This document shows positions 8,358-60,919 of a stretch of DNA of 64,000 bases, piece by piece (position 1 is the stretch's first letter; each line of letters opens with the position of its first letter). Source of the stretch: Stegostoma tigrinum. Taxonomy: Eukaryota. The stretch covers positions 101,875,558 through 101,939,557 of the forward strand of contig NC_081357.1 of assembly GCF_030684315.1 (NCBI RefSeq), written 5' to 3'. The notes below the pieces were generated by a model that did not search any database, had not been told where the DNA came from, and saw nothing but the letters and a program-made list of their open reading frames with translations. The position numbers were made by a program, and so were the translations under genes.

Positions 8358-8575
8358 CAATAAAACTGCAGATGCTGGGATCCAAGGTAGACAAACAGGA
8401 GGCTGGAAGAGCACAGCAAGATAGGCAAAATCTGGAAGAAAAGAGCAGTCAACGTTTTGGGTATTACCCTACCTCAGGAGACTTGAGGAAAGATAATACC
8501 TGAAATATCAACTACGTCTTCCCTCCATATGCTGTCAGCCTTGCTGTGTTCTTTCAAACTCCTGTTTGTTTACCC
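8358..8575. mobile_element. PLE-terminus-like fold-back element, family C
   Basis: Inverted arms GTAGACAAACAGGAGGCTGGAAGAGCACAGCAAG / CTTGCTGTGTTCTTTCAAACTCCTGTTTGTTTAC. Minus-strand core CTGAGGTAGGGTAATACCCAAAACGTTG. Shares the ACTGCAGATGCTGG end motif. Confidence 0.7.
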
Positions 8576-10564
8576 TGTTTCTTTCTACTCCTTGTGGCAA
8601 TAACTTTTGGAATTATAATTAACCATGTGTGTTCTGTCAATAGTGACAAAAAATGTGAATATTTGTCTCTCAGTTAACATCACTAAAATATTCTCTAATC
8701 AGTATTACCTTACCTTGTGAGTCGAAATGACTGCAACTTATAATGTTGATGAAATTTAAAAGGATTTGATTGGCTGTTGTGAGTATCAGGATATCTGAGG
8801 TTGTGAAATACAAATGCAACATTTTTTCCTTTCAAAACCAACAATGGTAGTGCCCTAGAAAGGTGATGACACATGCTCATGGCCAGAATCTACATATGGT
8901 GTCTTCTAACATAGGGAGGCTTTTAGTCTGCACCTACCACACAGTTGTACCTGACTAGAGACAGTCCTGCTCTAACCCCAACTATAAACAGATTGGAAGA
9001 ATTTAGAGAATAATGTGCAAAGTGTTTGGCAATGCTAGGACCTAACATGGCCATCAAGCCTTCAGGTGCAATTTGGATACAGAACTTCCAGCCCAGAGGC
9101 AGGTGCTGTCACTGTGCCATGAGATCTCCAGCAATATTCAATTTTTTTCATAGTTCTTTCTTTAAAAGCAGGATACCAGGAAACCTTTACATGCTGTTTT
9201 AGTTTCAGTGGTGCAGACAGTGGTATGGATAAAGAAATGTACTAACAGAAGAAGCAGGTTAAACTACATGACCCTTGTGAAACAGTTGGAAGATCAGATG
9301 GTTCATGAAATGGGTGGAGATCTAACCTCTGAGTCCTTTTGTTTCTTCATAATAAAGTAATTGTAACAACAGGATCAGCATTCCAATCTTAGCCAATCAT
9401 AGCAATCTGAATTTCCTAAAGCAAAGACTTACATTATAATTTATTTGCATTCTGGCAGTAATGTCACAAAACAGCGTTTAGTGTGAAAGTCTAATTAATC
9501 TAACATATCCATTTTGAAAATATATTCATTGGCAATAACATATATGTGTAATGAGATATGCAGAGTCCATATTCCATGATTACGACAAACTTAGTTACAT
9601 GCATTAAAATAATTTAGTTTTGAAAGGAATTCTCAACCCATTGACCAACACTTTTTTTTGGCTTCGGATAAATTGTGAGTGGTTATCTGCATCACGTTAG
9701 TTCAACTAGAGTCAAGTGTATCAAGAGCTAGACTGTTTATGATTAATAAATCCAATCAGCCTCACTATGATTTAGGAATTACAGTCTGTTTAAAATTAAT
9801 AGTAATCATTTTTATTGATGGTAGGGTGCTGAAACCTAAATGAAAATATCCTATCCAATCCATGTGGAAGAATTGTCCTCATTACTTGATATTAGCATTT
9901 TTGCCTCAACACAGATAGCACCTGCACTGGACTTTTAAATAGGCTCCATTCAGCTAAGAGAACCAGATGGTGCAATAGCTGTGATTATAGTCTGATCAAT
10001 CCTCTTTCTAAGTCCCCATAGATCTCATTGTGCCAGTCAATGAGTTGGAGGTAGGGCAGGATTTACATTTTTGGAGCTGGTCTAAAGATTGCATTTCCTC
10101 TTGCATTTGTGAACACTTGCAAACTTATTCCCAGCCAATTACATGATAAATTCAGTGTAACGAGAAATAGTTTTGGTTTCACACTGATGCTAAACTTGTG
10201 GACTTTGTTATGATCCTAGCAGATGTCATTACTGGACAAGTGAAACCCCAGACTGAAACCTCGCTTCATGGATCATAATTTGTTTCATTTTGGATTTAAC
10301 AAAGTTGTCCCTGACTGAAACATAAATGCTGCAGATTTTGTTTTAAACAATAAAACAGATATTCATGAACAAAAGAAATGAAGATAAGATAGGATAAATC
10401 AAATTATTCACTTGTAATGCTAACAAAGATTTTCAGGTGCACAGTAAAAGTATAATCCCACTAAACCTCAACACTCCTTTACAATTTGAAAAGAAAAACA
10501 CTTTTTGTACAGTACTTAAAACACACCTTGCATAACACCCCAAAACACCACTGATACAGTAAGT

Positions 10565-10675
10565 GTGGATGCTAGAAATCTGAAACAAAAATTGCTGGAG
10601 AAAGTCAGCAGATCTGGCCGCATCTGTGGAGAGAAAACAGAATTAATGTTTTGAATCCAGTAACTCTTTTCAAAA
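10565..10675 (-). mobile_element. Family B PLE-terminus unit (single arm)
   Basis: GATGCTAGAAATCTGAAACAAAAATTGCTGGAGAAAGTCAGCAGATCTGGCCGCATCTGTGGAGAGAAAACAG. Confidence 0.7.
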
Positions 10676-12334
10676 CCACTTATACACAATCACCATCATC
10701 CCTGTCTCATTAGCATCTTAATAGGTTTCATTTCCTTGAGACTTTAGCCTATAGCCTGGAACTGAAGATAGTTTCTTCCTGGAGCGAACAGACACCTGAG
10801 CTTAAACTTGCTCCATTTAAAGTAGCCTCTTCAGGATTTTATTCCAACACTTCCAGTGTGGGACTAAGATGGGCTCTATACTCAACAGTAATTCAATTTC
10901 ACTATCTCAAAGAACAAAGAACAATACAGCACAGGAAGAGGCCCTTCAGCCCTCCATGTCTGCACTGACCCCTATCAAAAGCACTTGTCTACACAACCAT
11001 CTTTATCCAATAACTTCATAGGTCTTAAAGGAAACCTAAACAAAAACTCTCTCTAAGCCATGGTTGTTAAAAAAGACCAAGTTTCAGAAATCTCTAACAA
11101 AACTATGAGACCCCATTATTTATCCTATTGGGCCACAAAACAGCATGACAAAAACAAAAAAAAATTGATTCTAAAGCTATGCCTCAAAAACCATTTTAAA
11201 GGAAATCACCATGGCTATGGGAATACTCACGTGTTAATTATTAACTTTCAGACACATTAAAAAGCTTACATTACTAACTGAAAAAACAAAAACAAACCTA
11301 CCATACATTATGTTAAAAATATATTTATATCATACAGTGTACACTACCATTACAATAACACACTGGACTGGAAAAATTAAATTAAATACTGTGAAGACAA
11401 AAAGGTCAAATTTTTGATTCAAGGTTTGAAATGCTCGAAGGTAATTGCACTGACAAGTAGCCATATTGCCCACATTTACATTTCATTATTATCTATTTTT
11501 AGCTCATTGATGTGCAATTTGATATTCTTCCATGTGGTGGAGATAAATTAGACAATAAGGATTCCCGATATATAAATATGGAAAAAAAATCCCCACTTGA
11601 CGTTGTTGCTTGCCTCCATTTTAGCCAGTAGGTCCCAACATCCCTCCTCATCCACTGAGATTGGTAGCTGACATAGACCAGGCTCACCACATCATCATGG
11701 CACAACTCCTACTGGCTTAGAGTACAGTTCTCCACTTCAATACTGTACTTCGGAGCTAACTTACACCTTTCACTATAATGCTTCTGTCAGGCACTCTGCA
11801 CACAGGGACAGGAACCCATCTCAGTAGGATACTTCTCAGGGCTCTTACCTTGTTCTTGTAGTGTTAACTTACGCTGTATCCTGTTTGGATGCTCACAGCA
11901 TTTTGTGCATTGTCATTTCATTCAGAGCTTACAGAACCCAGTTACTTCCGTCTTGCCCTGCTTCTTCTTAGTGCAGACAGAAAGTCGGGCAGCTAGCCAT
12001 GTCTGTCAGTAGTAATCAGTCAAGTGGGTGGACATGTTGCTTTATGGCACTGTGCTATGTCAATTTCATATCGGCAGCATGTGCCAGCAGCTTTTGTGGC
12101 AAACATGTTGCATGTATATGAACCAAATAGCCATGTCTGAAAGTCTAAGGGGAGTAGTCCTTCGTCAAGTGAAGGGGATTGGCACAAAAAGTCAAGGACA
12201 TCATCCAATATCAGTCCAGAGACTTGGACACAGTCAGTCAGCAATTAGGGCAGTCAGTGTCAGGGGTTCCATATTGATAGAGTCTGGGCCATAGTCAGAC
12301 CAGCGAGTCCACCATAGTCAGACAGGAGATTAGG

Positions 12335-12620
12335 GTTGGCACAGTGGTTAACACTGCTGTCTCACAGTGCTGGGTACCTGGGTTCAATTCCGGTGTAGGG
12401 TGACTGTTTGTATGAACTTTGCACATTCTCCCCGTGTCTTCATGGGTTTCTACCGGGTGCTCTGACTTGCTTTCACAGTCCAGAAGATGTGCAGATTAGC
12501 CATGATATAAGCACGGTTATAGGGATAGGGTAGGGGTGTGGGTGGAATGCGCTTAAGATGGTTGGTGCAGATTCGATGGGCTTGAAAGGCCTCTTCCTGC
12601 ACTGTCAGGATTCTATGATG
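12335..12620 (+). mobile_element. HE1-type V-SINE (tRNA-derived)
   Basis: TGGCACAGTGGTTAACACTGCTG (A-box), GGTTCAATTCC (B-box), V-domain-like TTTGCACATTCTCCCCGTGTC...GGGTTTC, CR1-type tail GATTCTATGA. Confidence 0.85.
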
Positions 12621-13271: not shown

Positions 13272-13987
13272 GATGTGGAAGCTGAAGATCTGAAACAAAA
13301 ACAAAAGTTGCTGGAGAAACTCAGCACGTCTGACAGCATTTGTGGAGGGAAAGCAGCTTTAACAAGTCCAGTGACTATTCTTCAGAATTTATCCAATCTA
13401 GGCAAAAAGCCATATTTATGCTGACGACAGGCCCTGTCATGACATCAGTGATAATGGGAACTGCAGATGCAGGAGAATCCAAGATAGTAAAATATGAGGC
13501 TGGATGAACACAGCAGGCCCAGCAGCATCTCAGGAGCACAAAAGCTGACATTCCGGGCCTAGACCCTTCATCAGAGAGGGGGATGGGGTGAGGGTTCTGG
13601 AATAAATAGGGAGAGAGGGGGAGGCGGACCGAAGATGGAGAGAAAAGAAGATAGGTGGAGAGGAGAGTATAGGTGGGGAGGTAGGGAGGGGATAGGTCAG
13701 GCATGGGCTGCTTTCAGCAGAGCCCACCCATTTTCATCAACTCATTAGCAGCTTTTCTCCTTCCCTGGGTCATTATTAACCATCCCTTTGTCTGCTGAAT
13801 TTTCTTTCTCTCTCTGAGCTCCATGTCCATCTATATGGTCATGCCTCCCCTGCCTCTCTCCCTCAATCCCGTCATCAGCAAAAATGTACTAACTATTGTC
13901 AGTTCGTAGGAAGGGTCACTAGACTTGAATTGTTAACTTTGTTTTCACTGCATAGACACTGACTTTCCCCAGCAATTCTGTTTTTGT
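13272..13987. mobile_element. Family B element with inverted ends and internal pyrimidine-rich segment, interrupted by a younger PLE end
   Basis: Left end 13272-13390 (TTGCTGGAGAAACTCAGCACGTCTG) is inverted at 13900-13987 (GGAAGGGTCACTAGACTTGAATTGTTAAC...CCAGCAATTCTGTTTTTG). AAAATGACAAAGCT occurs at both flanks (~13242 and ~13990). Confidence 0.6.
13447..13699 (-). mobile_element. Young 5'-truncated Neptune-like PLE 3' end with hammerhead motif (family A)
   Basis: Near-identical to the reverse complement of 20903-21155. Confidence 0.9.
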
Positions 13988-17545: not shown

Positions 17546-17552
17546 TTTATGA

Positions 17553-17731
17553 GCAAAAATAAAGCTGCTGGAAAAGCTCAGCAGGTCTGGCAGCATCTGT
17601 GAAGGTAAAAAACAGAGTTAAAATTTCAGGTCTGTTGATGCTTCTGAGGAAGGGTCAACAGACCTGAAACATTAACTCGGTTTTCTGTTTTTGTTCCTGA
17701 TTTACAGCATCCACAGTTCTTTTGTTTTTTT
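17553..17731. mobile_element. Family B fold-back element with hammerhead core
   Basis: Inverted arms. Plus-strand core CTGAGGAAGGGTCAACAGACCTGAAACATTAAC at 17644. Confidence 0.8.
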
Positions 17732-19284: not shown

Positions 19285-21400
19285 TGAGAGGATCGTGATG
19301 AGTTTGCCTTCTTGAATTTTTCCAGTCTGGATGAGGCAGGTGCACCCACAGGACTGTTTTAAAGAAAGTTCCAGGATTTTGACGTCGTGATGGTGGAGGA
19401 ATAACTACATACTTCCAAGCCAGGATGGCGTGTGGCTTGGAGGGGAGCTTGTCGTGAGAGTGTGCTAATTCATCCCACTTCCTACAGACAAAGGGGGTGG
19501 CCATGGGCACCCGCATGGGCCCCAGCTATGCCTGCCTCTTTGTAGGTTATGTGGAACAGTGCCTCTTCCGCACCTACACAGGCCCCAAACCCCACCTCTT
19601 CCTCCATTACATTGTTGACTGTATCGGCGCTGCCTCTTGCTCCCCAGAGGAGCTTGAACAGTTCATCCACTTCACCAACACCTTCCACCCCAACCTTCAG
19701 TTCACCTGGGCCACCTCCAGCACATCCCTCACCTTCCTCGATCTCTCAGTCTCCATCTCAGGCAACCAGCTTGTAACTGATGTCCATTTCAAGCCCACGA
19801 ACTCCCACAGCTATCTCGAATACACCTCCTCCCACCCACCCTCCTGCAAAAATTCCATCCCCATTCCCAAAAACTCCGCCTCCGTCGCATCTGCTCCCAC
19901 AATGAGGCATTCCACTCTCGCACATCCGAGATGTCCAAGTTCTTCAAGGACTGCAATTTTCCCCCCACAGTGGTCGAGAACGCCCTTGACCACGTCTCCC
20001 ACATTTCCCGCAACACATCCCTCACACCCCGCCCCCGCCACAACCGCCCAAAGAGGATCCCCCTTGTTCTCACACACCACCCCACCAACCTCCCGATACA
20101 ACGCATCATCCTCCGACACTTCCGCCATCTACAATCCGACCCCACCACCCAAGACATTTTTCCATCCCCACCCCTGTCTGCTTTCCGGAGAGACCACTCT
20201 CTCCGCGACTCCCTTGTTCGCTCCACACTGCCCTCCAACCCCACCACACCCAGCACCTTCCCCTGCAACCGCAGGAAATGCTACACTTGCCCCCACACCT
20301 CCTCCCTCACCCCTATCCCAGGCCCCAAGATGACATTCCACATTAAGCAGAGGTTCACCTGCACATCTGCCAATGTGGTATACTGCATCGACTGTACCCG
20401 GTGTGGCTTCCTCTACATTGGGGAAACCAAGCGGAGGCTTGGGGACCACTTTGCAGAACACCTCCGCTCGGTTCGCAATAAACAACTGCACCTCCCAGTG
20501 GCAAACCATTTCCACTCCCCCTCCCATTCTTTAGATGACATGTCCATCATGGGCCTCCTGCAGTGCCACAATGATGCCACCTGAAGGTTGCAGGAACAGC
20601 AACTCATATTCCGTTGGGAACCCTGCAGCTCAATGGTATCAATGTGGACTTCACCAGCTTCAAAATCTCCCTTTCCCCCATCGCATCCCAAAACCAGCCC
20701 AGTTCGTCCCCTCCCCCACTGCACCACACAACCAGCCCAGCTCTTCCCCTCCACCCACTGCATCCCAAAACCAGTCCAACCTGTCTCTGCCTCCCTAACC
20801 TGTTCTTCCTCTCACCCATCCCTTCCTCCCACCCCAAGCTGCACCTCCATCTCCTACCTACTAACTTCATCCCACCTCCTTGACCTGTCCACCTTCCCTG
20901 GACTGACCTATCCCCTCCCTACCTCCCTACCTATACTCTCCTCTCCACCTATCTTCTTTTCTCTCCATCTTCGGTCTGCCTCCCCCTCTCTCCCTATTTA
21001 TTCCAGAACCATCTCCCCATCCCCCTCTCTGATGAAGGGTCTAGGCCCGAAACATCAGCTTTTGTGCTCCTGAGATGCTGCTGGGCCTGCTGTGTTCATC
21101 CAGCCTCACATTTTATTATCTTGGATTCTCCAGCATCTGCAGTTCCCATTATCACTGCTAATTCATCTGCTGCATTTCCAGGTGGCAGAGACAGCAGGTT
21201 TAGAAAATACTATTGCCGAAGCTTTGTGAATTGCTACAGTACATTTTGCAGATGATGTGTACTATTGCCATTGTGCTTTGGTAGGGAAGGTATGAATATG
21301 TAAGGTGGTGTTGATCAACAGGCTGCTTTCTCCTAGATGATGTCAAGCTGCTTAAATGTTGCTGGAGCTACAGACATCAAGGCATTGACATTCCCACCTG
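19285..21400 (-). mobile_element. CR1/L2-group LINE 3' fragment split by the PLE insertion (19285-19462 and 21168-21400)
   Basis: Both flanks align consecutively with 7440-7870. Confidence 0.7.
19475..21155 (+). mobile_element. Young 5'-truncated Neptune-like Penelope element: RT C-terminus, GIY-YIG endonuclease, 3' UTR with hammerhead
   Basis: RT motifs VAMGTRMGPSYACLFVG, YIVD (degenerate YIDD), TFLDLSV, YLEYTSSHP. Zn-linker CNRRKCYTC. EN NVVYCIDCTRCGFLYIGETKRRLGDHFAEH. Frameshift near 19860, stop at 20582. TSD TGCTAATTCATC at 19463-19474 / 21156-21167. Confidence 0.95.
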
Positions 21401-27177: not shown

Positions 27178-29060
27178 ACAAAAATAGAAATTACTGGAAA
27201 AGCTCAGCAGGTCTGGCAGCATCTGTGGAGAGAAATCAGAGTTAACATTTTGGGTTGAGTGACCCTTCCTCAGAACTGATGATATCTAGAAAAATATTGT
27301 CCATAAGCAGAAGATAGCATGGTGGGAGGGGGCAGGAGTAAATGACAGGTGGGGATGCAGCTCAAAGAGAGACAAGAACAGTTGGCTAGATATGGGAGTG
27401 GATGATGATCTGGCTATGGGGGTGAATAATGGAGACTGTTAGTGGCTAACAATGAGTTGTGTGTAACAACAGACTATGTGATAACAAGGCCTGGTGTGTA
27501 GAAATTGGGGTAAGGACATGGGAGATGACCCTCAAGCCCTTAAGTTATTGAACTCGATATTGAGTCCAGAAGGTAGCAGTGTCCCCAAGAAGAAAATGCG
27601 GTGTTATTCTTTCAGCTTGCGTTGAACTTCGCTGGAAGGCTATAGCAAGCCTGAGATAGAGCCAGGGAACAGAATGGTGTGTTTTAAAGTGGCAGGCAAC
27701 AGGTAGCTCAGGGTCTGTAGAGCATAGATATTCCATGAAGTGGTCACTCAATCTGTGCTTTGTTTCACCAAGTAGAGGGGACCACGCTGTGAGCAGCAGA
27801 AGCAGGAGACTAGATTGTGTGAAGTGCAGGTAAAGTGCTGCTTCACCTGGAAGGTATATTTTGGGGCTTGGATACTGAGGAGGGAGAAGATGTTACACTT
27901 TAGCTGGTTGCAGGGAAAGGAGCCATGAGGCTGTGGGGGGCAGCGCTGGGAGTGACAGAACAGTGGACCAGGGTGTCCCGAAGGGTGACAAGAGGGGAGG
28001 GGAAATGTGTCCAGTGATGGCTTCACACTGGAGGTGATGGAAATTCCATCCGATGATCTTCTGGATGTGGATGCTGATGGGATGGTAAGTAAGGACAAGG
28101 GGAGCCCTCCCACTGTTGCAGGAGGGAAGCGAGGGAGTGGGGGCTGAAATGCGGGTGATGAAATGCAGCCCTGTCTACAACAGAGCTGGGGAATCTTCAG
28201 TTGAGGAAGAAGGTGGACATTTCAGAGGCTCCCTTTTTGAAGTTGTCATCATCGGAACATATGCAATAGAGACAGAAGAATTGGGAGAATGGAATGAAGT
28301 CTTTACAGGAAGCAGGGTGTGAGGATGTATAGTCAAGGTAACCGTGGGAGTCAGTGGGTTTATTGGTAACCAATCTATCACCTGAAATGAAAAACAAAAG
28401 TCAAAGAAGGGAAAGAAGGAATCAGAGATGCGCCAAGTGAAGGTGAGAGAGGGATGGAATTTAGAAGTGAATTCGATATGCTTTTCCAATTCTGAATGAG
28501 AGGTGGAGGCAGCACCAAGTATATCATTGATATGTCAGAGAAAGAGTTATGGGTGGGGACCCGAATAGGACTTGAACAAGGAATGTTCCATTTACACCAC
28601 AAAGAGACAGGCATAATTGAGGCCCATGTGCATTCCCATGACCATGTCTCTGACCTGAAGGAAATGAGAGGAATTAACAGAAAAGTTGTTACGGGTGGGA
28701 ATGAGCTTGGCCAGGTAGAGGCGGCTGGTAGTGGAGGGGTTGGTTCAGGCCTTTGTTCCAGAAAGAAGTGGAGAGTCTTGAGATCATCCTGGAGGGGGAT
28801 GGATACGTAAAGGGATTGCATGTCCATGGTAAAGATGTGGCAGCTGGATGCTGCAAACTGGAAATTCTGAAACTGGCATAAAGTGTCAGAGGAATCGCAG
28901 ACTTAAGTGGGCAGGGACTGGACCGGGGGAGAAAAGACTGAATCGAGGTAGGAAGAGATGAGTTCAGTGGGGCAGGAGCAGACAGAAACAATGGGTCTGC
29001 CCAGGTAGTCCTGTTTGTGGAATTTGGGAAGGAAGTAGAAGCAAGCTGTGCTTTCCACAT
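27178..29060 (-). mobile_element. Older Neptune-like PLE (RT + GIY-YIG, many frameshifts) ending in the family B terminus
   Basis: MDMQSLYVSIP (RT), FTSKFHPSLTFTW, YLDYTSSHP, FTCTSHNLVSCFCCSQRGPLY (EN). Terminal core on the minus strand CTGAGGAAGGGTCACTCAACCCAAAATGTTAAC. Confidence 0.9.
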
Positions 29061-31529: not shown

Positions 31530-32180
31530 AAGCCTGCCCACTGTCTAGGCTCAAGTCAGCAGTGTGACAAAATACTCCAAACTTGCCTCAGGGACCATTA
31601 CTTCAACAATACTCAGGAAACTTGACGCCATCCAGGATGAGATAGGAGGAACTGCAGATGCTGGAGAATCTGAGATAACAAGGTATAGAGCTGGATGAGC
31701 ACAGCAGGCCAAGCTTCATCAGCGGAGCAAAAAAGCTGATGTTTTGGGCCTTGACCCTTCTTCAGAAAACATTTCTACATTTCTGAAGAAGGGTCCAGGC
31801 CCGAAACATCAGCTTTCCTGTTCCTCTGATGCTGCTTGGCCTGTGGTGTTCACCCAGCTCTGCACCTTGTTATCTCCTCATCAAGGATGAAGCACCTTGC
31901 TTGTTTGGCACTACATCTAGAAACATTCACCCCTTCATCTGCCGAAACTCAGTTGCAGCTGTGTGCGTATGACCTACAAGATGCAGATACAAAATCCACT
32001 AAGGCTCCTTAGACAGCACTTTCCAAATCCACAAACACTGTTGTCTAGAAGGACGAGGGAAGCAAATACATGGGAACACAAAAACCCTACAAGTTCCCTT
32101 CCAAGACACCCACCATCCTGACTTGGAAATATATCACTGCTTGTTGGTTGTCACTGGGTCAAAATCCTGCACCTCCCTTT
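31530..32180 (+). mobile_element. CR1/L2-group LINE 3' fragment, interrupted by a fold-back element
   Basis: GGCTCAAGTCAGCAGTGTGACAAAATACTCC...CCTGACTTGGAAATATATCACTG matches 47985-48395. Confidence 0.75.
31641..31878. mobile_element. Family A fold-back element with two inverted hammerhead motifs and TSD
   Basis: Arms of about 100 bp around the loop ACATTTCTACA. Cores CTGAAGAAGGGTCCAGGCCCGAAACATC (+) and CTGAAGAAGGGTCAAGGCCCAAAACATC (-). TSD CATC(C/A)AGGATGA at 31629-31640 / 31879-31890. Confidence 0.9.
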
Positions 32181-32246: not shown

Positions 32247-33879
32247 GTTGTAGGCATGTTCGCCAAGCTGTTGGGTTTGGTTGCAAATGTTTTGTCACCT
32301 TACTAGGTAGCATCATCAATGTGCCTACTGTGAAGCATCGGCATTCTGTCCCGTTTGTTATTTATATGCCTCGGTTTGCTGGGGTGGTTGGTATTATTTC
32401 CGGTTTTGTTTCTCAGCGGTTTGCACACAAGGTCTACTTCAATGTGTTTCTTGATGGAGTTCCGGTTGGAACTCTAGGCCTCCAGGAATTCCCTGGCATG
32501 TGTCTGTTAGGCTTGTGCTGTTATCGATATGTTGTCCCAGTTGAATTTGTGTCTCTTGTTGGCCGTGTGTATTGAGACATGTGAGAATTGGGCATGTTCT
32601 TTGGGTCCGACATGTAGGTGACACCTTTATGATTATTAAATGCACAAAACTAGAAGAAACCCACCAACGCATAAACAACATCCTCACTAGGATAAAATTC
32701 ATGAAAGAAGAAGAGAAGAACAACTGACTCCTCTTCCTGGACATAATGGTAGAACGCAAAAACAACGGGGAACTCCAGACTAGTGTACATAGAAAGATCG
32801 CACATACGGACCAGATACTGAAGTACACCAGCAACCACCCCAACGCCCACAAACAAAGCTGCAGCAGGACAGTATTTAAATGAGCCACAACACATTGCAG
32901 CAACCTGGAACTACACAAAGCAAAACAGGAGCACCTATACGGAATCTACAAAAGGAATGGACACCTGAAAAGCACAGTCCGCTGTTACCTCCGAGACAGA
33001 CTGCAACAGGAAGACACAACATGACCAGAATTACTTATTACCCTACTATACATCAAGGACATATCAGAGATGACCACTCAAACCCCTAGGCATCACAGTA
33101 GCAGTGACAGAAGAAAGTAGAGGATCCCATACCCAACACCAGCAAAACTGGGCTAATATACAAAACACCATGGAAGGACTGTGAGAAACACTACATTGGC
33201 CAAACCAGAAGAAAACTGACAATATGGATACATGAACACCAACTACCCATCAAGAGAAACAACCGATTCTCAATTGTCTCTCTACACCTGGACAATGAGG
33301 GACACAAATTTGACTGGGAGAACATATCCATAATCGCACCAGCCATAAAGACATATACCAGGCAATTCCTGGAGGCCTGGTATTTCAACCAGAACACCAT
33401 CAAAAAACACATTGAATTAGACACAAAAACAAAGTTGCTGGAAAAGATCAGCAGATCTGGCAGCATCTGTGGAGGAGAAAACAGTTAAAGTTTTGAGCCC
33501 GGTGACCCCTCGGAGGAAGGGTCACCGTACCTGAAACGTTAACTCTGTTTTCTTCTCCACAGATGTTGCCAGACATGCTGAGCTTTTCCAGCAACTTTGT
33601 TTTTGTTCCTGATTCACAGCATCTGCAGTTCTTTTGGTTTTTACATTGAATTAGACCCTGTATACAAACCACTGAGAAACAGAACTGGAAATAATATAAG
33701 CAATCCCAGCAAACAGAGGTAAATAAATAATAAGCAGGGCAGAACATTGATGCTTCACTGGAAGCACACTGACGATGTTACCTAGCAGGGCAACGAATTG
33801 TTGGCAACCAAATCCACTGGCTTGGCGAGCAAGTCTACAACATCATCCACAATCCGAGCTACAAATCTTCTCAAAAACT
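32247..33879 (+). mobile_element. Poseidon-like PLE with inverted 5' copy of its 3' end (inverted pseudo-LTR)
   Basis: LLFLDIMVERKNNGELQTSVHRKIAHTDQILKYTSNHP (RT thumb); LIYKTPWKDCEKHYIGQT (GIY-YIG). 32247-32590 is the reverse complement of ~33290-33845. Degenerate TSD at 32231-32246 / 33880-33895. Confidence 0.88.
33423..33642. mobile_element. Family B fold-back element nested in the Poseidon-like PLE, perfect 14-bp TSD
   Basis: TSD ACATTGAATTAGAC at 33409-33422 / 33643-33656. Core GGAGGAAGGGTCACCGTACCTGAAACGTTAAC. Confidence 0.92.
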
Positions 33880-40825: not shown

Positions 40826-42520
40826 AGATAGTAGGAACTGCTGATGCTGTAGTCTGAGATAAAAGATGGAGCTGGAGGAACAGAGGAGGCCAGGCAGCAT
40901 CAGAGGAGGAGGAAAGATAACGCTTTGGGTCTGGGCCCTTCTTCAGAAATGGGGGAGGGGAAGGAAGCTCTGAAGTAAAAGTGGGGGGGAGTACGTGTAG
41001 GGTGGGCGGTGATAGAAGATTGATAGTGGAAGAGGCCACATCGGGAACAGCGACACGATAGGCCACATTAGTGGATGTGTACGTGAACACCTGTTGAATG
41101 TGGAAGGTTTTTTTGGGGCCTGGGATGAGGGTGAGGGGGGAGATATAGGGGCAGGTGTCGTACTTCCTGTGGTTGCAGGGAAAGGTTCCGGCGGTGGTGG
41201 GGCTAGTGGGGAGTGTGGAGCGGACAAGGGAGTCACAGAGAGTGTGGTCCCTCTGGAAGGCAGATAAGGGTGGGGAGGGAAATATATCCTTTGCAGTGGG
41301 GTCAGATTGCAGGTGGCGGAAGTGGTGGAGAATGATGTGTTGAATCTGGAGGTTAATGGGGTGATATGTGAGGACAAGCGGAATTGTGTCTTTGCTTTTA
41401 TTGTGGGGAGGCAGTGTGAGGGCTGAGGTGCAGGAAATACAAGAGATGCTGTCGAGGGTGTTTTTGACCACTGTGGGGGCAAATTGAGGTCCTTGAAAAA
41501 AAAGACGACAAATGGAATTTCCAGGAGTGGAATGCCTCATCTTGGGAGCAGATGCACCCTGGGCAAGGGCAGAGGAATTGGGAATAGGGGATGGCATTCT
41601 TGCAGGAAGGTGGGTGAGAGGAGGTATAGTCTAGGTAGCTGTGGGAGTCAGTGGTCTTGAAATAGATATCAGTTGACAGATGGTTACCAGAGATGGAGAC
41701 AGAGAGGTCCAAAAAGGAAAGAAAGTATCAGAGATGGTCCAGGTGAACTTGAGGCTGGGGTGAAAGGTGTTAGTAAAGTTGATGAACTGTTCAAGCTCTT
41801 TGTGGGAGCACGTGGCGGCGCCGATACAGTCATCAATGTAATGGAAGAAGAGTTGGGGCTTAGGGCCAGTGTAGCTGCAGAAAAGGAATTGTTCCACATA
41901 CCCTACAAGGAAGGAGGCATAGCTTGGGCACATGTGGGTACCCATGGCCACCCCCATTGTCTGTAGGAAGTGGAAGGAATTGAAAGAGAAGTTGTTGAAG
42001 ATGAGGACGAATTCAGATAAGCAGATGAGGGTGTCAGTGGAGGGGAACTGGCCGGGCCTGCGGGAGAGGAAGAAGCAGAGGGCCTTTAGACCATCTGCAT
42101 GGGAAATGCAGTTGTGTAGGGACTGGACATCCAAGGTGAAGATGAGGTGTTGGGGGCCAGGGAATCTGAGGTTTTGGAGGATGTTGAGAGTGTGGGTGGT
42201 GTCTTGGACGTAGGTGGGGAGTACTTGGACCGGGGGGAGAAAATAGAATCAAAATAAGTGGAAATGAGTTCAGTGGGGCAGGAGCAGGCAAACACAATCG
42301 GTCGACCAGGGCAGACGGGTTTATGGATTTTGAGAAGGAGATAGAAACCGGCGGTGCAGGGTTTGGGAATGATGAGGTGGAGGCTATGGGTGGGAGGTCA
42401 CTTGAGGTGATGAGGTTATGGATGGTCTGGGAGATGATGTTTTGGTAGTCAGGCATGGGGTCATGATCAAGGGGGTGATAGTAGGAGGCGTCAGAGATTT
42501 GGTGCCTGGCATCGGTGAGA
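40826..42520 (-). mobile_element. Neptune-like PLE (RT + partial GIY-YIG, internal deletion, family A-type terminus)
   Basis: MDVQSLH, GVAMGTHMCPSYAS, FFHYIDDCIG, YLDYTSSHP. Terminus 40826-40950 with minus-strand CTGAAGAAGGGCCCAGACCCAAAGCG. Confidence 0.92.
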
Positions 42521-42809
42521 GAAAGGTTGTTTCCGGGACATGGTAGTGGCCCTTAGCCTTAAAATGATTGGCATTCCATCCTCTGGTTCCTTTTCTGTAC
42601 TTCTACTTGACGAATGGGTATTCTTGAAGAATTATGTTGTCTCATGCAACAGTTTCCTCCATGAGGGTTTCTTCTGAGTGGAGAGTGTCCCATACATTGA
42701 CATCTATGTTGGCATTTCTTGAGGGACGTCTTCAGGGATTCTTTGAGATGCTTCCTTTGACCTCATCTTGCTCAAATGCTTTACGTGAGCTGGACACTCA
42801 GCAGTCACA

Positions 42810-43362
42810 TGAGACCAGATTACAGTCCAACAGGTTTATTTGAAATCACAAGCTTTTGGAATACTGCTCCTTCATCAGTTGACTTCACCTGATGAAGGAC
42901 CAGTGCTCCAAAACCTTGGCTAAGAAGGCTAAGAGGGGGTTTAATAGAGACATACAAGATGATCAGAGGATTAGATAGGGTGGACAGTGAGAGTCTTTTC
43001 CTGAGGATGATGACTTTGGCTTGTATAAGGGGGCATAGTGGCAAATTGAGGGGCGATAGATTTAAGACAGATGTCAGAGGCAGGTTCTTTACTCAGAGAG
43101 TGGTAAGGGCGTGGAACACCCTTCCTGCCAATGTAGTTAACTCAGCCACATTAGGGAAATTTAAACAGTCCTTGGATAAGCATATGGATGATGATGGGAT
43201 ATTGTAAAGGGATGGGCTTAGATTAGTTCACCGGTTGGCGCAATATTGAGGGCCAAAGGTCCTGTTCTGCGCTGTATTGTTTGATGTTCTATGTTCTATA
43301 ACCTGGTGTTGTGTGATATCTGACTTTGTCTTCCCCAGTCTAACACAGGCACCTCCACATCA
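42810..43362. mobile_element. Family D fold-back element with two inverted hammerhead motifs, split by a CR1 insertion
   Basis: CACCTGATGAAGGACCAGTGCTCCAAAACCTT (+, ~42886) and CTGATGAAGGAGCAGTATTCCAAAAGCTTGTG (-, ~42848-42878). The right arm resumes at 43300. Confidence 0.75.
42920..43298 (+). mobile_element. CR1/HER1 LINE 3' fragment
   Basis: LIETYKMIRGLDRVD...RGRFFTQRVVRAWNTLP; tail (TTCTATG)n. Confidence 0.9.
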
Positions 43363-43369
43363 TTCCTGG

Positions 43370-44225
43370 AGTTGAGCAAAGAAGATTGCTTTGGCTGTCA
43401 GAACTCACAGATCTGAAGGCCCAACTGTGTTGGTTTCAGATGATTGAGGCCTCAGTGCTGGTGTTAATAGCTGCTTTAAGGATGCTGATGTTAGAATGGG
43501 CTTATCTTCCCAGCTGATGTACAGAATCCAGTTCAAACAGTGTTGATAAAAACCAAAAGAACTGCAGATGTTGTAAATCAGCAACAGTTCTGAGGAACGG
43601 TCACTGAACCTGAAAAGTTAACTCTAACTTTTTCTTCAAAGATGCTGCCAGACTTGCTGAGCTTTTCCAGCAACTTCTGTTTTTTGTTCAAACAGCATTG
43701 ATGTACTTCTCAAGGATCTTAAATGGTGCCTATGTGTAAGTTTCAGAACTATATAGAAGAGACAGGAGAATGGTGCCTTATGTAAAATGATCTTGGTATC
43801 GTCATGTATGTAATGGTCATTGAAGGCTATCATCCTTAGGTGTTCAAAGGTAGAACTTGCAGATTTAACTCGATGTAGAATCTTTACATTGATATCAGCC
43901 TTAGATGAAGAGTAGCCCTCTCGGGAAGAAAAATGTTCCAAGTTTGGGAGCAGCTCTCTATTAATCTGAATAGTTTGGGAGCAGCTCTCTGTTGATCTGA
44001 AGGGAGGGATGGATCAGAATTTGATGTGAGATGAGTTGGTAAAGGATCTAAGTCATCTTGAGGTTGAGGCTGAGACCAATTTTTTAGTATGCTTCCGTGA
44101 AGATATCAAGTGAAGCTTGAAAATTCTATTCTGAGAGAACGAAGATGATATTGCCATCTGCATACTCAAGTTCCACAGGTGAGGTTAGAGTTATTTTCTA
44201 CCTGGATTTAAGGCTGTAAACTTGC
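43370..44225 (-). mobile_element. RTE-clade LINE RT fragment (BovB-like motifs), interrupted
   Basis: VELEYADG (YADD-like), KIGLSLNLKMT, SSKADINVKILHRVKSASSTFEHLR, then QHCLNWILYISWEDK...NQHSWA across the 43548-43685 insertion. 31-bp tandem duplication at 43940-44000. Confidence 0.85.
43548..43685. mobile_element. Short family B fold-back element with TSD
   Basis: TSD GTTCAAACAG(TG/CA)TTGAT at 43531-43547 / 43686-43702. Core AGTTCTGAGGAACGGTCACTGAACCTGAAAAGTTAACT. Confidence 0.85.
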
Positions 44226-45208: not shown

Positions 45209-46077
45209 CATAAGACCGTAAGGCCATAAAACATAGGAGCAGAAATTAGGCTATTCAGCCCATCGAGCCTGCTCTGCCATTCAGTCATGGCTAACAAGTT
45301 TGTCAACTCCATTCTCTTGCTTTCTCTCTGTAACCCTTGATCTCCTTGACAATCAAGAACCGAGCTATCTCTGTCTTAAATATACTCAATGACCTGGCCT
45401 GAACAGACTTCTGTGGCAATGAATTCCATTGATTCACCATTCTCTGGCTGAAGAAGTTTCTCCTTATCTCCGTTCTAAACGGTTGTCCCTTTACTCCGAA
45501 GCTATGTCCTTGGGTCCTAATCTCTCCTACCAATGGAAGTGTCTTCCTAACATCCACTCTGTCCAGGCTGTTTACTATTAGCTTCAATTAGATCCCCTTT
45601 TCATCTTCTAAACTCCAAGTACAGACCCAGAGTCCTCAAACATTCCTGATATGTTAAGCCTTTCATTCCTGGGATCAATGTCATGAACTTTCTCTGAACC
45701 CGCTTCAGGTTCAGTATATCCTTCCTTAGGTATGGGGCCCAAAACTGCTCACAATACTGTCTGAACAGAACTCTATAAAGCCTCAGAAGTACATCCCTGC
45801 TTTAATATTTAGTTCCCTTGAAATAAATGCTAACATTGTATTTTCCTTCCTAACCAGCAAGTTTACCTTAAACAAATCTGGGACTAGAACTCCCATGTCC
45901 CTCATATTTCTGAATTTTCTCCCTATTTAGAAAGTAGTCTATACCTTCATTCTCTGATGAAGGCTCTGATGAAGGGTCTAGGCCCGAAACGTCAGCTTTT
46001 GAGCTCCTAAGATGCTGCTTGGCCTGCTGTGTTCATCCAGCTCCACACTTTGTTATACCTTTATTCTTCCTACCAAG
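45209..46077 (-). mobile_element. CR1/HER1 LINE 3' fragment
   Basis: EIRRNFFSQRMVNQWNSLPQ; tail (CATAAGAC)n on the plus strand. Related to 51598-52383. Confidence 0.9.
45954..46053 (+). ncRNA. 100-bp hammerhead-only PLE terminus insertion with TSD; intact minimal hammerhead core 45966-45993
   Basis: CTGATGA-A-GGGTCTAGGCCC-GAAA-CGTC. TSD TATACCTT(C/T)ATTCT at 45940-45953 / 46054-46067. Confidence 0.8.
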
Positions 46078-48527: not shown

Positions 48528-48603
48528 AGCATTGTGGAATGAGTACTGGGTCCCTTGTGCTCCCTGCCCCATATTGCATAAAAAATGCAGCATTGCTATA
48601 AGA

Positions 48604-48827
48604 TAATAAAGTGTGGAGCTGGATGAACACAGCAGGCCAAGCAACAACTCAGGAGCACAAAAGCTGGCGTTTCGGGCCTAGACCCTTCATCAGAGAGGAG
48701 GATGAAGGGTCTAGGCCCGAAACGGCAGCATTTGTGCTCCTGAGATGCTGCTTGGCCTGTTGTGTTCATCCAGCTCCACACCTTGTTATCTTGGATTCTC
48801 CAGCATCTGCAGTTCCCATTATCACTA
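48604..48827. mobile_element. Young family A fold-back element with two inverted hammerhead motifs and perfect 16-bp TSD
   Basis: Arms 48602-48691 / 48701-48791 with a loop of about 9 nt, then a ~36-nt unpaired tail. TSD CAGCATTGCTATAAGA at 48588-48603 / 48828-48843. Confidence 0.95.
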
Positions 48828-48850
48828 CAGCATTGCTATAAGAGCAGGTT

Positions 48851-56929: not shown

Positions 56930-57687
56930 AGAGATAACAAAGTGTGGAGCTGGATGAACACAGCAGGCCAAGCAGCACCCCAGGAGCACAAAAGCTGACA
57001 TTTCGGGCCTAGACCCTTCATCAGAGAGGGGGATGGGGAGAGGGAACTGGAATAAATAGGGAGAGAGGGGGAGGCGGACCGAAGATGGAGAGAAAAGAAG
57101 ATAGGTAGAGAGGAGAGTATGGGTGAGGAGGTAGGGAGGGGATAGGTCAGTCCAGGGAAGACAGACAGGTCAAGGAGGCGGGATGAAGTGGTAGGTGGGA
57201 AATGGAGGTGCGGTTTGAGGTGGGAGGAAGGGATGGGTGAGTGGAAGAACAGGTTAGGGAAGCGGAGACAGGCTTGGCTGGTTTTGGGATGCAGTGGGGG
57301 GAGGGGACGAGCTGGGCTGGTTTTGTGATGCAGTGGGGGGAGGGGAAGAACTGGGCTGGTTTTGGGATGCAGTGGGGGAAGGGGAGATTTTGAAGCTTGT
57401 GAAGTCCACATTGATACCATTGGGCTGCAGGATTCCCAAGCGGACTATGAGTAGCTGTTCTTGCAACCTTCGGGTGGCATCATTGTGGTACTGCAGGAGG
57501 CCCATAATGGGCATGTCGTCTGAGGAATGGGAGGGGGAGTTAAAATGGTTCGTGACTGGGAGGTGCAGTTGTTTGTTGCGAACTGAGTAGAGGTGTTCTG
57601 CAAAGCGGTCCCCAAGCCTCCGCTTGGTTTCCCCAATGTAGAGGAAGCCACACCGGGTACAATGGATACAATATACCACATTGGCAG
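56930..57687 (-). mobile_element. Young Neptune-like PLE 3' portion (GIY-YIG + 3' UTR + hammerhead)
   Basis: ANVVYCIHCTRCGFLYIGETKRRLGDRFAEH; highly similar to 20368-21120; ~41-bp repeats in the UTR; core CTGATGAAGGGTCTAGGCCCGAAATGTC. Confidence 0.95.
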
Positions 57688-57732
57688 TGACTGCTTCTGG
57701 CTTAGACATACCCCATGTGATTTCCAGGAGAG

Positions 57733-58782
57733 GTGAGGAGCTTGAACAGTTCATCAACGTTACTAACACCTGCCACCCCAACCTCAAATTCACCTGGACC
57801 ATCTGATACCTCTCTGTCCTCCCTGGGCCTCTCTGTCTCCATCTCTGGTGACCACTTTGAAACTGATAACAATTTCAAGCCCACTGACTCCCACAGCTAC
57901 CTAGGATACATTTCCTCCCTCCCCAACCTTATCTGCCTTCTGGAGGGACTGCTCTCTCTGTAACTCCCTTCATCAACTCCACACTCCCCACTAGCCCCAT
58001 CATCCTCAACACTTTTCCCAGCAACCACAGGAGGTGCTACACCTGCCCCTACACTTCCCCACTCACCTCCATCCCAGAACCAAAATAACCCTTCTACATC
58101 AGACAGATGTCCACCCGCACATCCGCTAATGTGGTCTATCGTATCTGCTGCTCCCAATGTGGCCTCCTCTACACTGGGGAGACCAAGGTAAGGCTTGGAG
58201 ACTGCTTTGTAGAGCGGAGGCTCGGAGACCACTTTGTAGAGCACCTACGCTCAGTTTGTGACAAACAACAACGCCTCCCAATCACAAACAACTTCAACTG
58301 CCCCTCCCACTCATTGGACGACATGTCCATACTGGGTCTCTTCCAGTGTCACAATGATGCCAGTCAGAAACTGAAGGAGCAGTGCCTCATATTCCACCTT
58401 GGGAGCCTACAACCCGATGGTCTCAATGTGGACTTTGCTAACTTCAAAATCTCCCCACCCCTAGCCTCATACCAAGACCAACCTCCCTCACATCCCTGCC
58501 TCTTTGACCTGACATAACCCATCTGTCTTCTCTCCCACCTCGCTGACCAATCCTCACTACTACCTACTTGTACTCACCTATCACCATCCCACCTATCTTC
58601 CCCAGCCTGACCCCTCTCTCTCTCTTTATTTCAGAGTCCCCTTCCTCCTCTCCCATTTCTGAAGAAGCGTCCCAACCGGAAATATCAGCTTTCCTGCTCC
58701 TCTGATGTTACCTATCCTGCTGTGTTCCTATAATTCCACAACTTGTTATCTTAGACTCCAGCATCGGCAGTTCTTACTGTCT
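57733..58782 (+). mobile_element. Older Neptune-like PLE with internal deletion and 27-bp duplication
   Basis: EELEQFIN, FKPTDSHSYL, NVVYRICCSQCGLLYTGETK, duplicated RLGDCFVER/RLGDHFVEH. Decayed terminus CTGAAGAAGCGTCCCAACCGGAAATATC. Confidence 0.88.
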
Positions 58783-59737: not shown

Positions 59738-59875
59738 GCAGTTCTGAAGAAGGATCCCTGGACTTGAAATGTTGACTTGGCTTTCTCTCCTCAGATGCTG
59801 CCATACCTGCTGACTTCCTCCAGCAATGTTTGTTTGTGTTTCAGATCTTCAGCATCCACAGTTCCTTGTTTTATT
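59738..59875 (+). mobile_element. Family B PLE-terminus unit
   Basis: AGTTCTGAAGAAGGATCCCTGGACTTGAAATGTTGAC...CAGATGCTGCC...CAGCATCCACAGTT. Confidence 0.75.
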
Positions 59876-60456
59876 GGTATTCCCATCTTCTCATTAATCT
59901 CCTAAAATCAAGGGTAGAGGAACCAAAGAGTTCTAATTTGGACTGGTCAGATAGAATTCTTCTGTGAACAATGTGGAGGGGAGAGAATAATAGTGCGAGG
60001 ATAGAGAGGAGGAGAGAGTGTGAGACAGACAGAGAGAGAAAATGTCATTATACATTATCTAATTTTTTTTGATTCATTGGAAAAGTGTACAAAACCATAT
60101 TACTGTGCCTTCAGCACTGTGGGGAAATGATCTGATATGTAATTCTAGAGAGACAGGCTTGCATTGATAGAACCATCTTGTGACACTTGGTCTTTTATTT
60201 ATACACCAGCTATATAGACTGCAGGTTAGAGCAGAGCCACAGATCAACACAATGTAAAATCAATATCTCATGAATATGGGAATTTGAGAGTTTGCTGAGA
60301 CTGAAGCTCTGAACAATGGGTAAGCAATCATTGACTTTTAACATTTAGAATTAAACTCAGCATTTCAAAAGCTGTGAGACATTTGTTGTGTCACCAAAGT
60401 GTTACCAGAATGTAGGGCTGCTTGCACAAAGTGCGAGACAACTGGTGGTGATTTAA

Positions 60457-60550
60457 TCCGAAGGCCACCATACCTCATGCGAGGGGAAAGGTTGAGGAGA
60501 GTCCGAAGGCCACCATACCTCATGTGAGGGGAAAGGTTGAGGGAGAGTCC
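60457..60550. repeat. 45-bp tandem duplication
   Basis: TCCGAAGGCCACCATACCTCATG(C/T)GAGGGGAAAGGTTGAGGAGAG x2, probably inside a minus-strand tRNA-SINE remnant (GGGAATTGGCCC downstream). Confidence 0.9.
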
Positions 60551-60821
60551 TTCATAGTAACATCAGTTGGTGATGGGAATTGGCCCCATGTTGAAATAAT
60601 AGAACAAGTCAGATTATGAGTTAAGCAGATAGCATTGAATTATGAATGGAGTGAGGAGTTAAAATTTTTGAGAGTATTAAGTTGATACGGAGCAATTAGA
60701 ATGTGGTTTAATCTCCACTGGTACTTGTGGTACTTTATGTATTCAACTTAGAGTACTCAGGTGATGAAATTTGACTACTTGTTGCTGTGGGAAGCTGAGA
60801 ACTCAGCACAACCACTTTGTG

Positions 60822-60919
60822 GCTCTCTCTGATGAAGGGTTTAGGCCCGAAACGTCAGCTTTTGTGCTCCTGAGATGCTGCTTGGCCTGCTGTGTTCATC
60901 CAGCTCCACATTTTGTTAT
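60822..60919 (+). ncRNA. 98-bp hammerhead-only PLE terminus insertion with TSD; core 60829-60856
   Basis: CTGATGA-A-GGGTTTAGGCCC-GAAA-CGTC. TSD CACA(A/G)CCACTTTGTG at 60807-60821 / 60920-60934. Confidence 0.8.

Follow-up and report, generated by a model that had tools for sequence, protein, structure and literature searches.

Decayed minimal hammerhead motifs at the 3′ ends of PLEs in the carpet shark Stegostoma tigrinum

Our analysis of a 64,000-nucleotide (nt) stretch of the Stegostoma tigrinum genome (contig NC_081357.1, positions 101,875,558 to 101,939,557; here referred to as the window) located 34 sites with a hammerhead-like motif, which remained after four weak rows (E values of 0.06 to 0.77) had been discarded from 38 nhmmer rows. 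The sites fall into families A1, A2, B, C, D, and E. Family A1, whose copies are the most alike (93 to 96% identical), includes a hammerhead at 21024..21061 on the plus strand, with a stem III decayed to ACAU, that belongs to a long copy of a Penelope-like element (PLE) and lies in its 3′ pseudo-LTR (pLTR). Its landmarks are C3 at 21029, C17 at 21056, and A1.1 at 21057, where the 3′ cleavage product begins; the element 3′ ends lie near 21120 and 21157. Upstream of this hammerhead is a broken PLE open reading frame (ORF; 19458..20584, plus strand), which is 90% identical to zebra-shark and 85% identical to whale-shark proteins and also matches proteins carrying RVT_1, HTH_animal, and GIY-YIG domains. 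The RT part is followed, in another frame (19781-20584), by a C-x4-C-x2-C linker of the Neptune type (CX2-5CxxC) and GIY-YIG. Two solo A1 copies on the plus strand retain the whole core and an ACGU stem III, one at 45961..45998 (GUC cut triplet; copy 45954-46053, flanked by 14-nt target-site duplications) and the other at 60824..60861 (2-bp stem I, 15-nt duplications). On the minus strand, the hammerhead at 13542..13579 carries A13→G and AUGU in a copy that reaches 126 nt further upstream, and that at 56992..57029 has a whole core and AUGU and follows a GIY-YIG fragment (57257-57694). A head-to-head inverted A1 pair (48600..48826; 18-nt duplication, tail on one arm) contains two broken hammerheads (48661-48698, minus; 48694-48731, plus).

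Family A2 comprises an inverted pair at 31640..31876 (12-nt duplication) with hammerheads at 31733-31770 (minus, G12→A) and 31778-31815 (plus, whole core, ACAU), and a second inverted pair at 1290..1462 (16-nt duplication), one arm of which is truncated in the core while the other is tail only. Single A2 hammerheads lie at 40914..40951 (minus; G12→A, A15.1→G), downstream of a broken PLE RT-EN ORF (41026-42552), and at 58654..58691 (plus; whole core, broken stem II, AUAU), after a GIY-YIG fragment (57908-58517); a tail-only copy occupies 29544-29600 (minus). Family B includes inverted pairs at 17551..17730, at 33423..33642 (16-nt duplication), and, decayed, at 452..658, as well as a copy with an inverted tail piece at 43548..43690. 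The plus-arm hammerhead of the first pair (17639-17678) has a whole core, G·U at 10.1-11.1, and ACAU; that of the 43548..43690 copy (43585-43624, plus) has a whole core, a broken stem II, and AAGU. Further B hammerheads are found at 27239..27278 (minus; G12→A, 4-bp stem I), downstream of a broken PLE RT-EN ORF (27545-29135), and at 59739..59778 (plus; whole core, decayed stem II, AUGU), and other decayed B copies at 10579-10680 (minus), 13295-13392 (minus), 13897-13988 (plus), and 56619-56705 (minus).

The C family is represented by an inverted pair (8358..8577) with hammerheads at 8446-8482 (minus; A9→U, G12→A, ACGU) and 8478-8514 (plus; C3→U, AUAU). Family D consists of an inverted pair (42789..42922) without an adjoining ORF, both arms of which carry G12→A (42845-42883, minus, AGCU; 42884-42922, plus, ACCU), and a third copy at 5971..6009 (minus), which has G5→A and retains GAA-AGCU-U. 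The E hammerhead at 33764..33807 (plus; A15.1→U, UUGU) lies downstream of a GIY-YIG fragment that has no CxxC linker before it and runs over 33108-33422 and again from 33643, the intervening segment being the B pair inserted in the GIY-YIG region of this E element. A second E hammerhead (32281..32324, minus; C3→U, G12→A, ACAU) lies downstream of a GIY-YIG end (32435-32602).

Thus, pieces of broken RT/GIY-YIG ORFs precede A1, A2, B, and E hammerheads in the window, C and D occur there only as short ends with no such ORF alongside, and no intact PLE ORF is present; the Pfam GIY-YIG matches score below the curated cut-off. The order of RT and GIY-YIG, the 5′-truncation, and the inverted 5′-truncated copy with a one-sided tail resemble the Neptune and Penelope/Poseidon EN+ PLEs described by Craig et al. 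2021 (PMC8557442); compared with the clades described there, the window differs in having no intact ORF and in family D having none. Of 8 inverted structures, 6 carry the distal tail on a single arm and none carries it on both, and target-site duplications of 11 to 18 nt flank 7 of 12 structures examined, a count made without a shuffle control. Contigs of the same species place two element 3′ ends at 21120/21 and 21153/57, 33 to 37 nt apart, and in each family the hammerhead lies about 90 to 130 nt before the two 3′ ends of its element. This arrangement is like that of the Poseidon element PAc of Anolis carolinensis (Frangieh et al. 2024, PMC11167929), in which the pLTR hammerhead is followed, after about 100 to 150 nt, by two RT start sites delimiting a tail of 30 to 40 nt, and priming likewise occurs on both strands.

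A minimal hammerhead descriptor (strictly, CUGANGA, stem II of at least 4 bp, GAAA-NN-U-H, and stem I of at least 2 bp) matched 6 sites in the window; in 200 blockwise dinucleotide shuffles the mean was 0.005 (maximum of 1). Requiring stem III to be palindromic as well left 2 sites in the window and none in the shuffles. As judged from these features, the motif is the minimal type I hammerhead of PLE pLTRs, a kind already known from metazoan PLEs (Cervera & De la Peña 2014, PMC4209133), where it was described from the Xena, Poseidon, and Neptune elements of fish and from coelacanth, frog, and reptiles. Every feature listed in that study is present here at the family level. The type I core lacks loop III, and positions 15.2-16.2 are palindromic; a base is inserted between A9 and 10.1 (A in A/B/C/D, U in E), and the pair 10.1-11.1 is G-C, with G10.1 being the majority state in A1, A2, B, D, and E (one of two copies in C) and C11.1 being intact or CpG-decayed in 27 of 28 copies. 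The many families per genome, "full of covariations", the predominance of solo copies, and the occasional opposite-strand pairs were described there as well. Helix II measures 4 to 6 bp here versus 7 to 8 bp in the Schistosoma motifs, and the 2-bp stem I of A1 is as in D. virilis. The host differs, as the results, discussion, and two supplement files of that study name no shark. An earlier note on this DNA had proposed PLE hammerheads with a self-complementary, dimer-type stem III, and in this it was right; small PLE hammerheads reported to cleave as dimers (Lünse, Weinberg & Breaker, RNA Biol) are described in a review (PMC6765202) as having such short palindromic stems III.

The same note held that CUGANGA...GAAA is kept across the families. 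All the stem II strings it quoted are present where it placed them. However, when scored over C3-U4-G5-A6-N7-G8-A9 ... G12-A13-A14-A15.1 and U16.1-H17, the core is whole at only 9 of the 34 sites, all of them A1, A2, or B. Three of these nine are palindromic at 15.1-16.1, one (58659) with a broken stem II, so that core, stem II, and palindrome are intact together at two sites, 45966 and 60829, both plus. Families C, D, and E have no core-complete copy, although no core position has been lost from all copies of any of these families, and the very copies cited for them are broken: A9→U and G12→A in C (C3 at 8477, minus), G12→A in both cited D copies, and A15.1→U, UUGU in stem III, and an A·C mismatch within the quoted stem II in E (33769).

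By analogy with the published class, two motifs in transcripts of master elements would join by their self-complementary 4 nt, ACGU or, in D, AGCU, and this pairing would rebuild helix III and permit a weak cut after GUC, GUU, or CUU, probably aided by the protein of the element; selection for this would have acted on the masters. In vitro activity of the published minimal hammerheads is low (PMC4209133), and eight of nine Xenopus dimers did not cut, as stated in bioRxiv 10.64898/2026.07.22.740005. In all four core-complete A1 copies, the monomer is predicted to fold with its catalytic core paired to the cut site, which points to an inactive hairpin, and the modeled active dimer lies 22 to 42 kcal/mol above the best alternative in a model that ignores tertiary contacts. 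The 5′ starts of A copies lie between −11 and +7 of C3 in 7 of 14 cases and at the cut site in none, and 672 contigs have a loose end at 21028. Since the copies end at the 5′ edge of the hammerhead and include all of it, most new copies would have been reverse-transcribed from uncleaved RNA, in agreement with PAc in vitro, where uncleaved RNA is the main template (PMC11167929).

These observations also bear on the possibility that masters keep the motif mainly for a job other than cutting, for instance to mark the start of the transcript as a folded 5′ landmark, to bind a protein, or to stop RT, with cutting vestigial at least in family A. The clustering of short-copy 5′ ends and loose contigs at the 5′ edge of the motif fits this idea, as does the combination of a 2-bp stem I and a predicted inactive hairpin in A1, whose copies resemble one another most. 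In addition, hammerhead mutants had no effect on PAc insertion in vitro (PMC11167929), Naiads are described as spreading without canonical hammerheads, and the role of the PLE hammerhead is still called unclear (both in PMC8557442). We nevertheless consider a non-cutting job unlikely, because three lineages retain all 11 invariant positions of the core together with the palindrome of helix III, and a mere hairpin would need neither. It is also opposed by a compensatory path at stem I pair 2.2-1.2, which is C-G in A1, U·G in A2, and U-A in B and C; in the aligned copies this pair, absent from the earlier note, is the best case of real compensation. The third objection comes from junctions: among the own-species joints listed that go back from the element 3′ end, three of eight land on A1.1 (21057), coming from RT start sites 21123, 21125, and 21157. 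The chance of this is about 3 × 10−6 if joints are uniform and independent, neither of which is a safe assumption.

We tentatively suggest that such head-to-tail junctions from an RT start site to A1.1 might be germ-line cutting by the minimal hammerhead recorded in DNA: RT would run off the 5′ end of ribozyme-cut RNA and then jump to a new template. They may instead reflect a preference for DNA target sites that lie within older copies, a single ancestral junction from which they descend, or an artefact of which joints were listed. In PAc, no RNA-seq reads ended at the cut site (PMC11167929), whereas here three candidate DNA junctions, among the joints listed, fall on it.

The earlier note counted five unrelated families, and one may ask whether five independent lineages converged on the structure, or separately preserved it, giving significant covariation. 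Alignment of the tails outside the ribozyme (40 shuffles per pair) argues otherwise for A, B, and C, with z scores above 4 in 56 of 84 A1-B pairs, 9 of 14 A1-C pairs, and 11 of 24 B-C pairs, and weaker similarity in A2-B (20 of 60) and A2-C (2 of 10). These tails are common to A, B, and C, and there are therefore three lineages, not five. Families A1, A2, B, and C, the last tied to A/B by its tail, constitute one diversified lineage, of putative Neptune type by its CX2-5CxxC linker (PMC8557442), so that A/B/C and PAc would differ in clade. By the absence of this linker before its GIY-YIG, E would be a Penelope/Poseidon-type lineage, and D is a PLE by architecture only. The D and E tails resemble neither each other nor those of A/B/C (against A/B/C, 0 of 78 D pairs and 1 of 52 E pairs at z > 4), and in their stems II both strands are changed while pairing is mostly retained.

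Covariation within the A/B/C lineage is not above shuffles. In 18 A/B/C copies the score is reached by 90 of 500 shuffles, and only one cell holds a two-sided change in stem II. The consensus stem II pairs are G-C, G-C, G-C, and U-A or U·G, and only loop length varies; the "UA" loop assigned to A is too short for a hairpin, the predicted fold being 4 bp with a CUAG loop. Changes on both sides of a stem are confined to comparisons of ABC, D, and E with one another (n = 3), and the latter two rest on 3 and 2 decayed copies, respectively. Five independent lineages are thus quite improbable; shared ancestry is simpler than convergence, because PMC4209133 and PMC8557442 report hammerheads in canonical PLE clades generally.

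Stem III does differ between D (AGCU) and A/B/C (ACGU), a two-sided change. ACGU itself is seen in 5 of 23 A/B/C copies and its CpG-decay forms in 12 of 23, and it can be taken as the A/B/C family state since position 16.2 of the 21029 copy is G in about 70% of the depth of same-species contigs. Among the cited examples, ACGU holds at 45966, while 21029 and the B copy at 17644 read ACAU, the latter without a palindrome; AGCU is found in two of three D copies, and the E palindrome is deduced from ACAU and UUGU in two copies. Stem I comprises 4 bp in B, 2 bp in A1, C, and E, and 2 bp plus one in A2. The claimed AGUU/AACU stem I of B is present at 27273, 43590, and 13905 but not at 17644 (5′ arm GCUU), where the supposedly compensated pair 10.1-11.1, G·U, is CpG decay of G-C. 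In D, each copy has a mismatch in the quoted stem II pairs, and CAC/GUG exists in no single copy: stem I forms only when different copies are combined, with two of three copies (A at 2.1) mismatched at the pair adjoining the cut.

Decay of the genomic copies is neutral, with CpGs as its main sites. Of 28 copies, 10 retain the C11.1-G12 CpG and 17 have CA or TG in its place; the catalytic G12 has decayed at this CpG in 9 of 28, and in same-species contigs G12→A makes up about 15% of the depth, the same as at the neighboring C. Because decay includes G12, any selection acted on master elements, not on copies. By majority, A1, A2, and B have an invariant core, while A and B tail consensuses are identical at only 35/51 and 36/51 positions (about 69 to 71%); departures outside CpGs number 4/142 in the core versus 85/824 in the tail (P = 0.0025), in 15 copies picked for a recognizable core and hence biased. 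The claim of selection in all lineages is thus tenable at most for masters and fails for genomic copies.

Decay of G12 at the CpG rate likewise makes it very improbable that the host kept some copies as working ribozymes, e.g., for processing a host transcript. The two fully intact same-strand A1 copies (45966 and 60829) might suggest such a use. However, they lie 14.9 kb apart and are predicted to misfold, and their intactness is expected from age because A1 copies are the most alike. No same-family, same-strand hammerheads stand close in tandem in the window, and none of 15 tandem-repeat rows overlaps a site. Animal non-LTR retrozymes, likewise type I hammerheads from PLE pLTRs and reported in one chondrichthyan genome, are head-to-tail tandem arrays with hammerheads (bioRxiv 10.64898/2026.07.22.740005), and the window has no such array.

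A chance reading of ordinary repeat sequence is hardly conceivable, even though the Rfam check suggested earlier gave no hammerhead model among seven matches at E ≤ 10 (presumably as expected for motifs without helix III) and copy number inflates the site count because copies within a lineage share one ancestor: three lineages whose flanks are unrelated have the pattern at one and the same place in the pLTR, it shows class-specific extras that lie outside the core string originally searched, and shuffled windows yield only 0.005 sites.

Collectively, these data indicate that the copies are very probably dead, mostly 5′-truncated pLTR 3′ ends of shark PLEs of three lineages. The finding extends the 2014 result on minimal hammerheads to another vertebrate group and in this respect adds little; the candidate cut-site junctions are what could prove important. 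More than 100,000 contigs of one run align to one family end, and the shark genome allows base-by-base counts of 5′ ends relative to C3 and the cut site, so that cleavage in vivo would be testable from DNA alone.

Broken open reading frames (ORFs) of the RT-GIY-YIG type lie upstream of the A1, A2 and B hammerheads in the window, which is repeat-rich, with a GC content of about 41%. The ORF piece at 19850-20581 is 90% identical to a zebra-shark protein and 85% identical to a whale-shark protein, which makes a carpet shark the most probable host, and a search of PDB sequences with the RT piece as query gave no match. The A1 frame contains a CX4CxxC linker, a type given as a feature of Neptune elements (PMC8557442). 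The E hammerhead lies after a GIY-YIG piece that lacks the CxxC linker, and E is probably Penelope/Poseidon-like, while D, for which the window holds no ORF, is a Penelope-like element (PLE) by architecture only. Target duplications of 11-18 nt were found in 7 of 12 insertion structures, the tail is confined to a single arm in six of the eight head-to-head pairs, and contigs of the same species show two 3′ ends per element. The two arms of each inverted pair belong to a single insertion but run on opposite strands, so that the pair cannot provide a cis dimer. One such pair, of family B (33409-33658, with a 16-nt duplication), lies inside an E element, in its GIY-YIG region, which indicates that B was active after that E copy had landed.

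The window also holds fragments of non-LTR (LINE-type) elements at 7953-8345, 46589-46876, 45219-45953, 51604-52444 and 42896-43364, two of them with weak RVT_1 matches; these fragments may be CR1/L2-like. A 152-bp inverted repeat (3944-4095 and 4387-4538, 96.7% identity), unrelated to the PLE ends, is possibly a young non-autonomous DNA transposon, and an assembly gap of 146 N (26005-26150) falls inside a (TG)n microsatellite.

The earlier note had regarded the hammerhead-bearing 3′ ends as five unrelated families. To compare the tails, the ribozyme was removed and each pair was scored against 40 shuffles with a threshold of z>4, which was exceeded in 56/84 A1-B, 9/14 A1-C, 11/24 B-C, 20/60 A2-B and 2/10 A2-C pairs. 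In contrast, only 1/52 comparisons of E with A/B/C passed, and none of those of D with A/B/C (0/78) or with E (0/6). A degenerate 24-base tail motif derived from A and B copies matched 11 A and 8 B copies at no more than two mismatches and was absent from the shuffles, and one distal tail word is common to A1, A2, B and C. The families thus form three lineages, since the A/B/C tails align with each other and the D and E tails do not. Two metagenome loci matching the shared-tail motif were rejected as chance, being GC-rich and similar in the motif alone.

Profiles built from the window copies returned 38 rows, of which 4 weak ones were dropped and 34 parsed as sites, each named here by the position of core base C3. 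Every core base is intact in 9 of these 34; three of the nine have a palindromic loopless stem III (positions 15.1-16.1), and two (45966+ and 60829+) also keep stem II. A structural descriptor found 6 window sites, compared with 0.005 per shuffle in 200 shuffles. An Rfam scan of the window reported no hammerhead family and instead gave seven weak miRNA/snoRNA matches, including inverted PLE pairs read as hairpins. Copy 45966 differs from other A1 copies in having a 5-bp stem I, which happens to arise from 10 nt of the core start repeated at its 5′ insertion junction (45954-45965). Three plus-strand hammerheads of different families (58659, 59744 and 60829) are spaced by exactly 1085 bases, probably by coincidence.

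The sequence strings quoted in the earlier note were located in the window, and its account proved largely accurate for the family consensuses; however, the single copies it cited are mostly damaged. Stem III reads ACAU in the A (21029) and B (17644) copies, the core of the C copy is broken by A9→U and G12→A, both cited D copies carry G12→A, and the E copy combines A15.1→U and a UUGU stem III with an A.C mismatch within stem II. The assignment of ACGU to A/B/C stands, as the palindrome is intact in 5 of 23 copies and present as CpG-decay forms in 12, and G makes up about 70% at position 16.2 in same-species contigs; likewise, AGCU is found in two of the three D copies. In effect, family consensuses had been described rather than the cited copies.

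Because MAFFT misplaced the D and E stems when applied to all 28 parsed sites, pair counts were limited to A/B/C, namely to 18 of the 23 copies, the other 5 being offset or cut short within the core. In these, 80.1% of cells pair, a value equalled by 141 of 500 column shuffles, and the covariation score was reached by 90 of 500, so the proposed covariation finds no support within A/B/C. Stem II varies there only in loop length and in U-A versus U.G. At the C11.1-G12 step, 28 copies (6 sites that were truncated or mis-parsed being excluded) divide into 10 with CG, 9 with CA, 8 with TG and 1 with GG. Both a G.U pair in stem II of B, considered as compensation, and AUAU 'palindromes', considered as stem III covariation, were rejected as CpG decay, the former at C11.1-G12. 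The clearest compensation concerns the stem I pair 2.2-1.2 (C-G 6, U-A 6, U.G 3, unpaired 3). Two-sided changes in stems II and III do exist between A/B/C, D and E, but three lineages are too few for a statistic, and the D and E states rest on 3 and 2 decayed copies, respectively.

The window hammerheads belong to the known kind of minimal hammerheads (min-HHR) of PLEs: as far as sequence can tell, the motif shares the features of this class. Helix I would have 2-4 bp, and cleavage is predicted. This part of the earlier interpretation, that they would work like the PLE class, is supported, but its five unrelated families are contradicted by the A/B/C tails, and its covariation is not supported within A/B/C. 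Unlike hammerheads of retrozyme arrays, those of the window are not arrayed; hammerhead retrozymes are reported for one chondrichthyan (bioRxiv 10.64898/2026.07.22.740005). The passages covered from openly accessible papers name no shark min-HHR.

In the published min-HHR class, two motifs associate by their 4-nt palindromes, which restores helix III and allows weak cutting (PMC4209133 and PMC6765202). The shark motif would most likely act in the same manner, as a palindrome-paired dimer with a rebuilt helix III and weak cutting. In the Anolis element PAc, the hammerhead requires the protein of the element in order to cut, and insertion in vitro does not depend on cutting (PMC11167929). Two properties of A1 count against efficient cutting: its stem I is only 2 bp long, and in the fold predicted for all 4 core-complete copies, by a model without tertiary terms, the core is paired with the cut site. 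In A1, stem II and its loop form a single self-complementary 12-mer (21037-21048, 45974-45985 and other A1 copies), which is predicted to join two RNAs of this family in an extended inactive duplex. Elsewhere in the species, a joint from 21059 back to 21025 in the same-species sequencing run X1 marks a head-to-tail repeat of about 35 nt comprising the hammerhead alone, a candidate tiny cis dimer.

The 5′ ends of the copies bear on whether the templates were cleaved. Among 14 A copies, seven have their 5′ end within −11 to +7 of C3, five reach well upstream and two consist of tail only, whereas the cut site is the start of none. For B, this end falls between −8 and +5 of C3 in 6 of 13 sites, and the C and D arms, judged by eye, meet about 5 nt or less upstream of C3. 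A long loose end one base before C3, at 21028, is shared by 672 contigs of X1 (among the 24 of 958 rows listed), a number to which A2-type copies clipped there contribute. Since the 5′ ends of short copies cluster at the front edge of the core rather than at random or at the cut site, most templates appear to have been uncleaved, and the cluster at the core edge may reflect a transcription start or a stop of the RT. The B copy 56619-56705, whose alignment begins 2 nt before the cut, was rejected as a cut-site start, as the alignment is clipped and the GAAA region is still present upstream.

Three X1 junctions nevertheless touch the predicted cut site, joining element 3′ ends at 21123, 21125 and 21157 through one A to 21057, the first base following the cut (A1.1). 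They come from a table without a denominator, of which 12 of 125 rows are listed, 8 of them from X1; these 8 joints lead back from the 3′ end to 21057 in three cases, to the 5′ edge of the motif in two and elsewhere in three. The rows listed for the other three sequencing runs contain no such junction, and X1 may derive from the same sample as the source of the window. The junctions are also compatible with a DNA site preferred for insertion within older copies, or with descent from one ancestral junction. That the RT ran off a cleaved RNA and jumped template, leaving a fossil of cleavage, is a tentative reading that we consider rather doubtful; no paper on PLE cleavage-site junctions was among the matches listed from the open literature.

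The distribution of substitutions points to the stage at which selection operated. At ten non-CpG positions of the core, 13 of 250 cells differ from the consensus, and G12 does so in 9 of 28 copies. Counted over 15 copies whose core is recognisable, departures outside CpGs amount to 4/142 in the core versus 85/824 in the tail (p=0.0025), a comparison biased by the choice of copies and by subfamily structure. The A and B tail consensuses are identical at only 35-36 of 51 positions, while the core majority is unchanged, and in same-species contigs variants of at least 8% inside the A1 motif occur only at CpGs, with G12 at about 15% (among the 40 of 49 rows listed). The earlier claim of selection in all lineages therefore does not extend to the genomic copies, which decay mainly at CpGs, G12 included; it holds at most for the masters, which, with the core spared, the tails diverged and motif variants placed at CpGs, appear to have been constrained.
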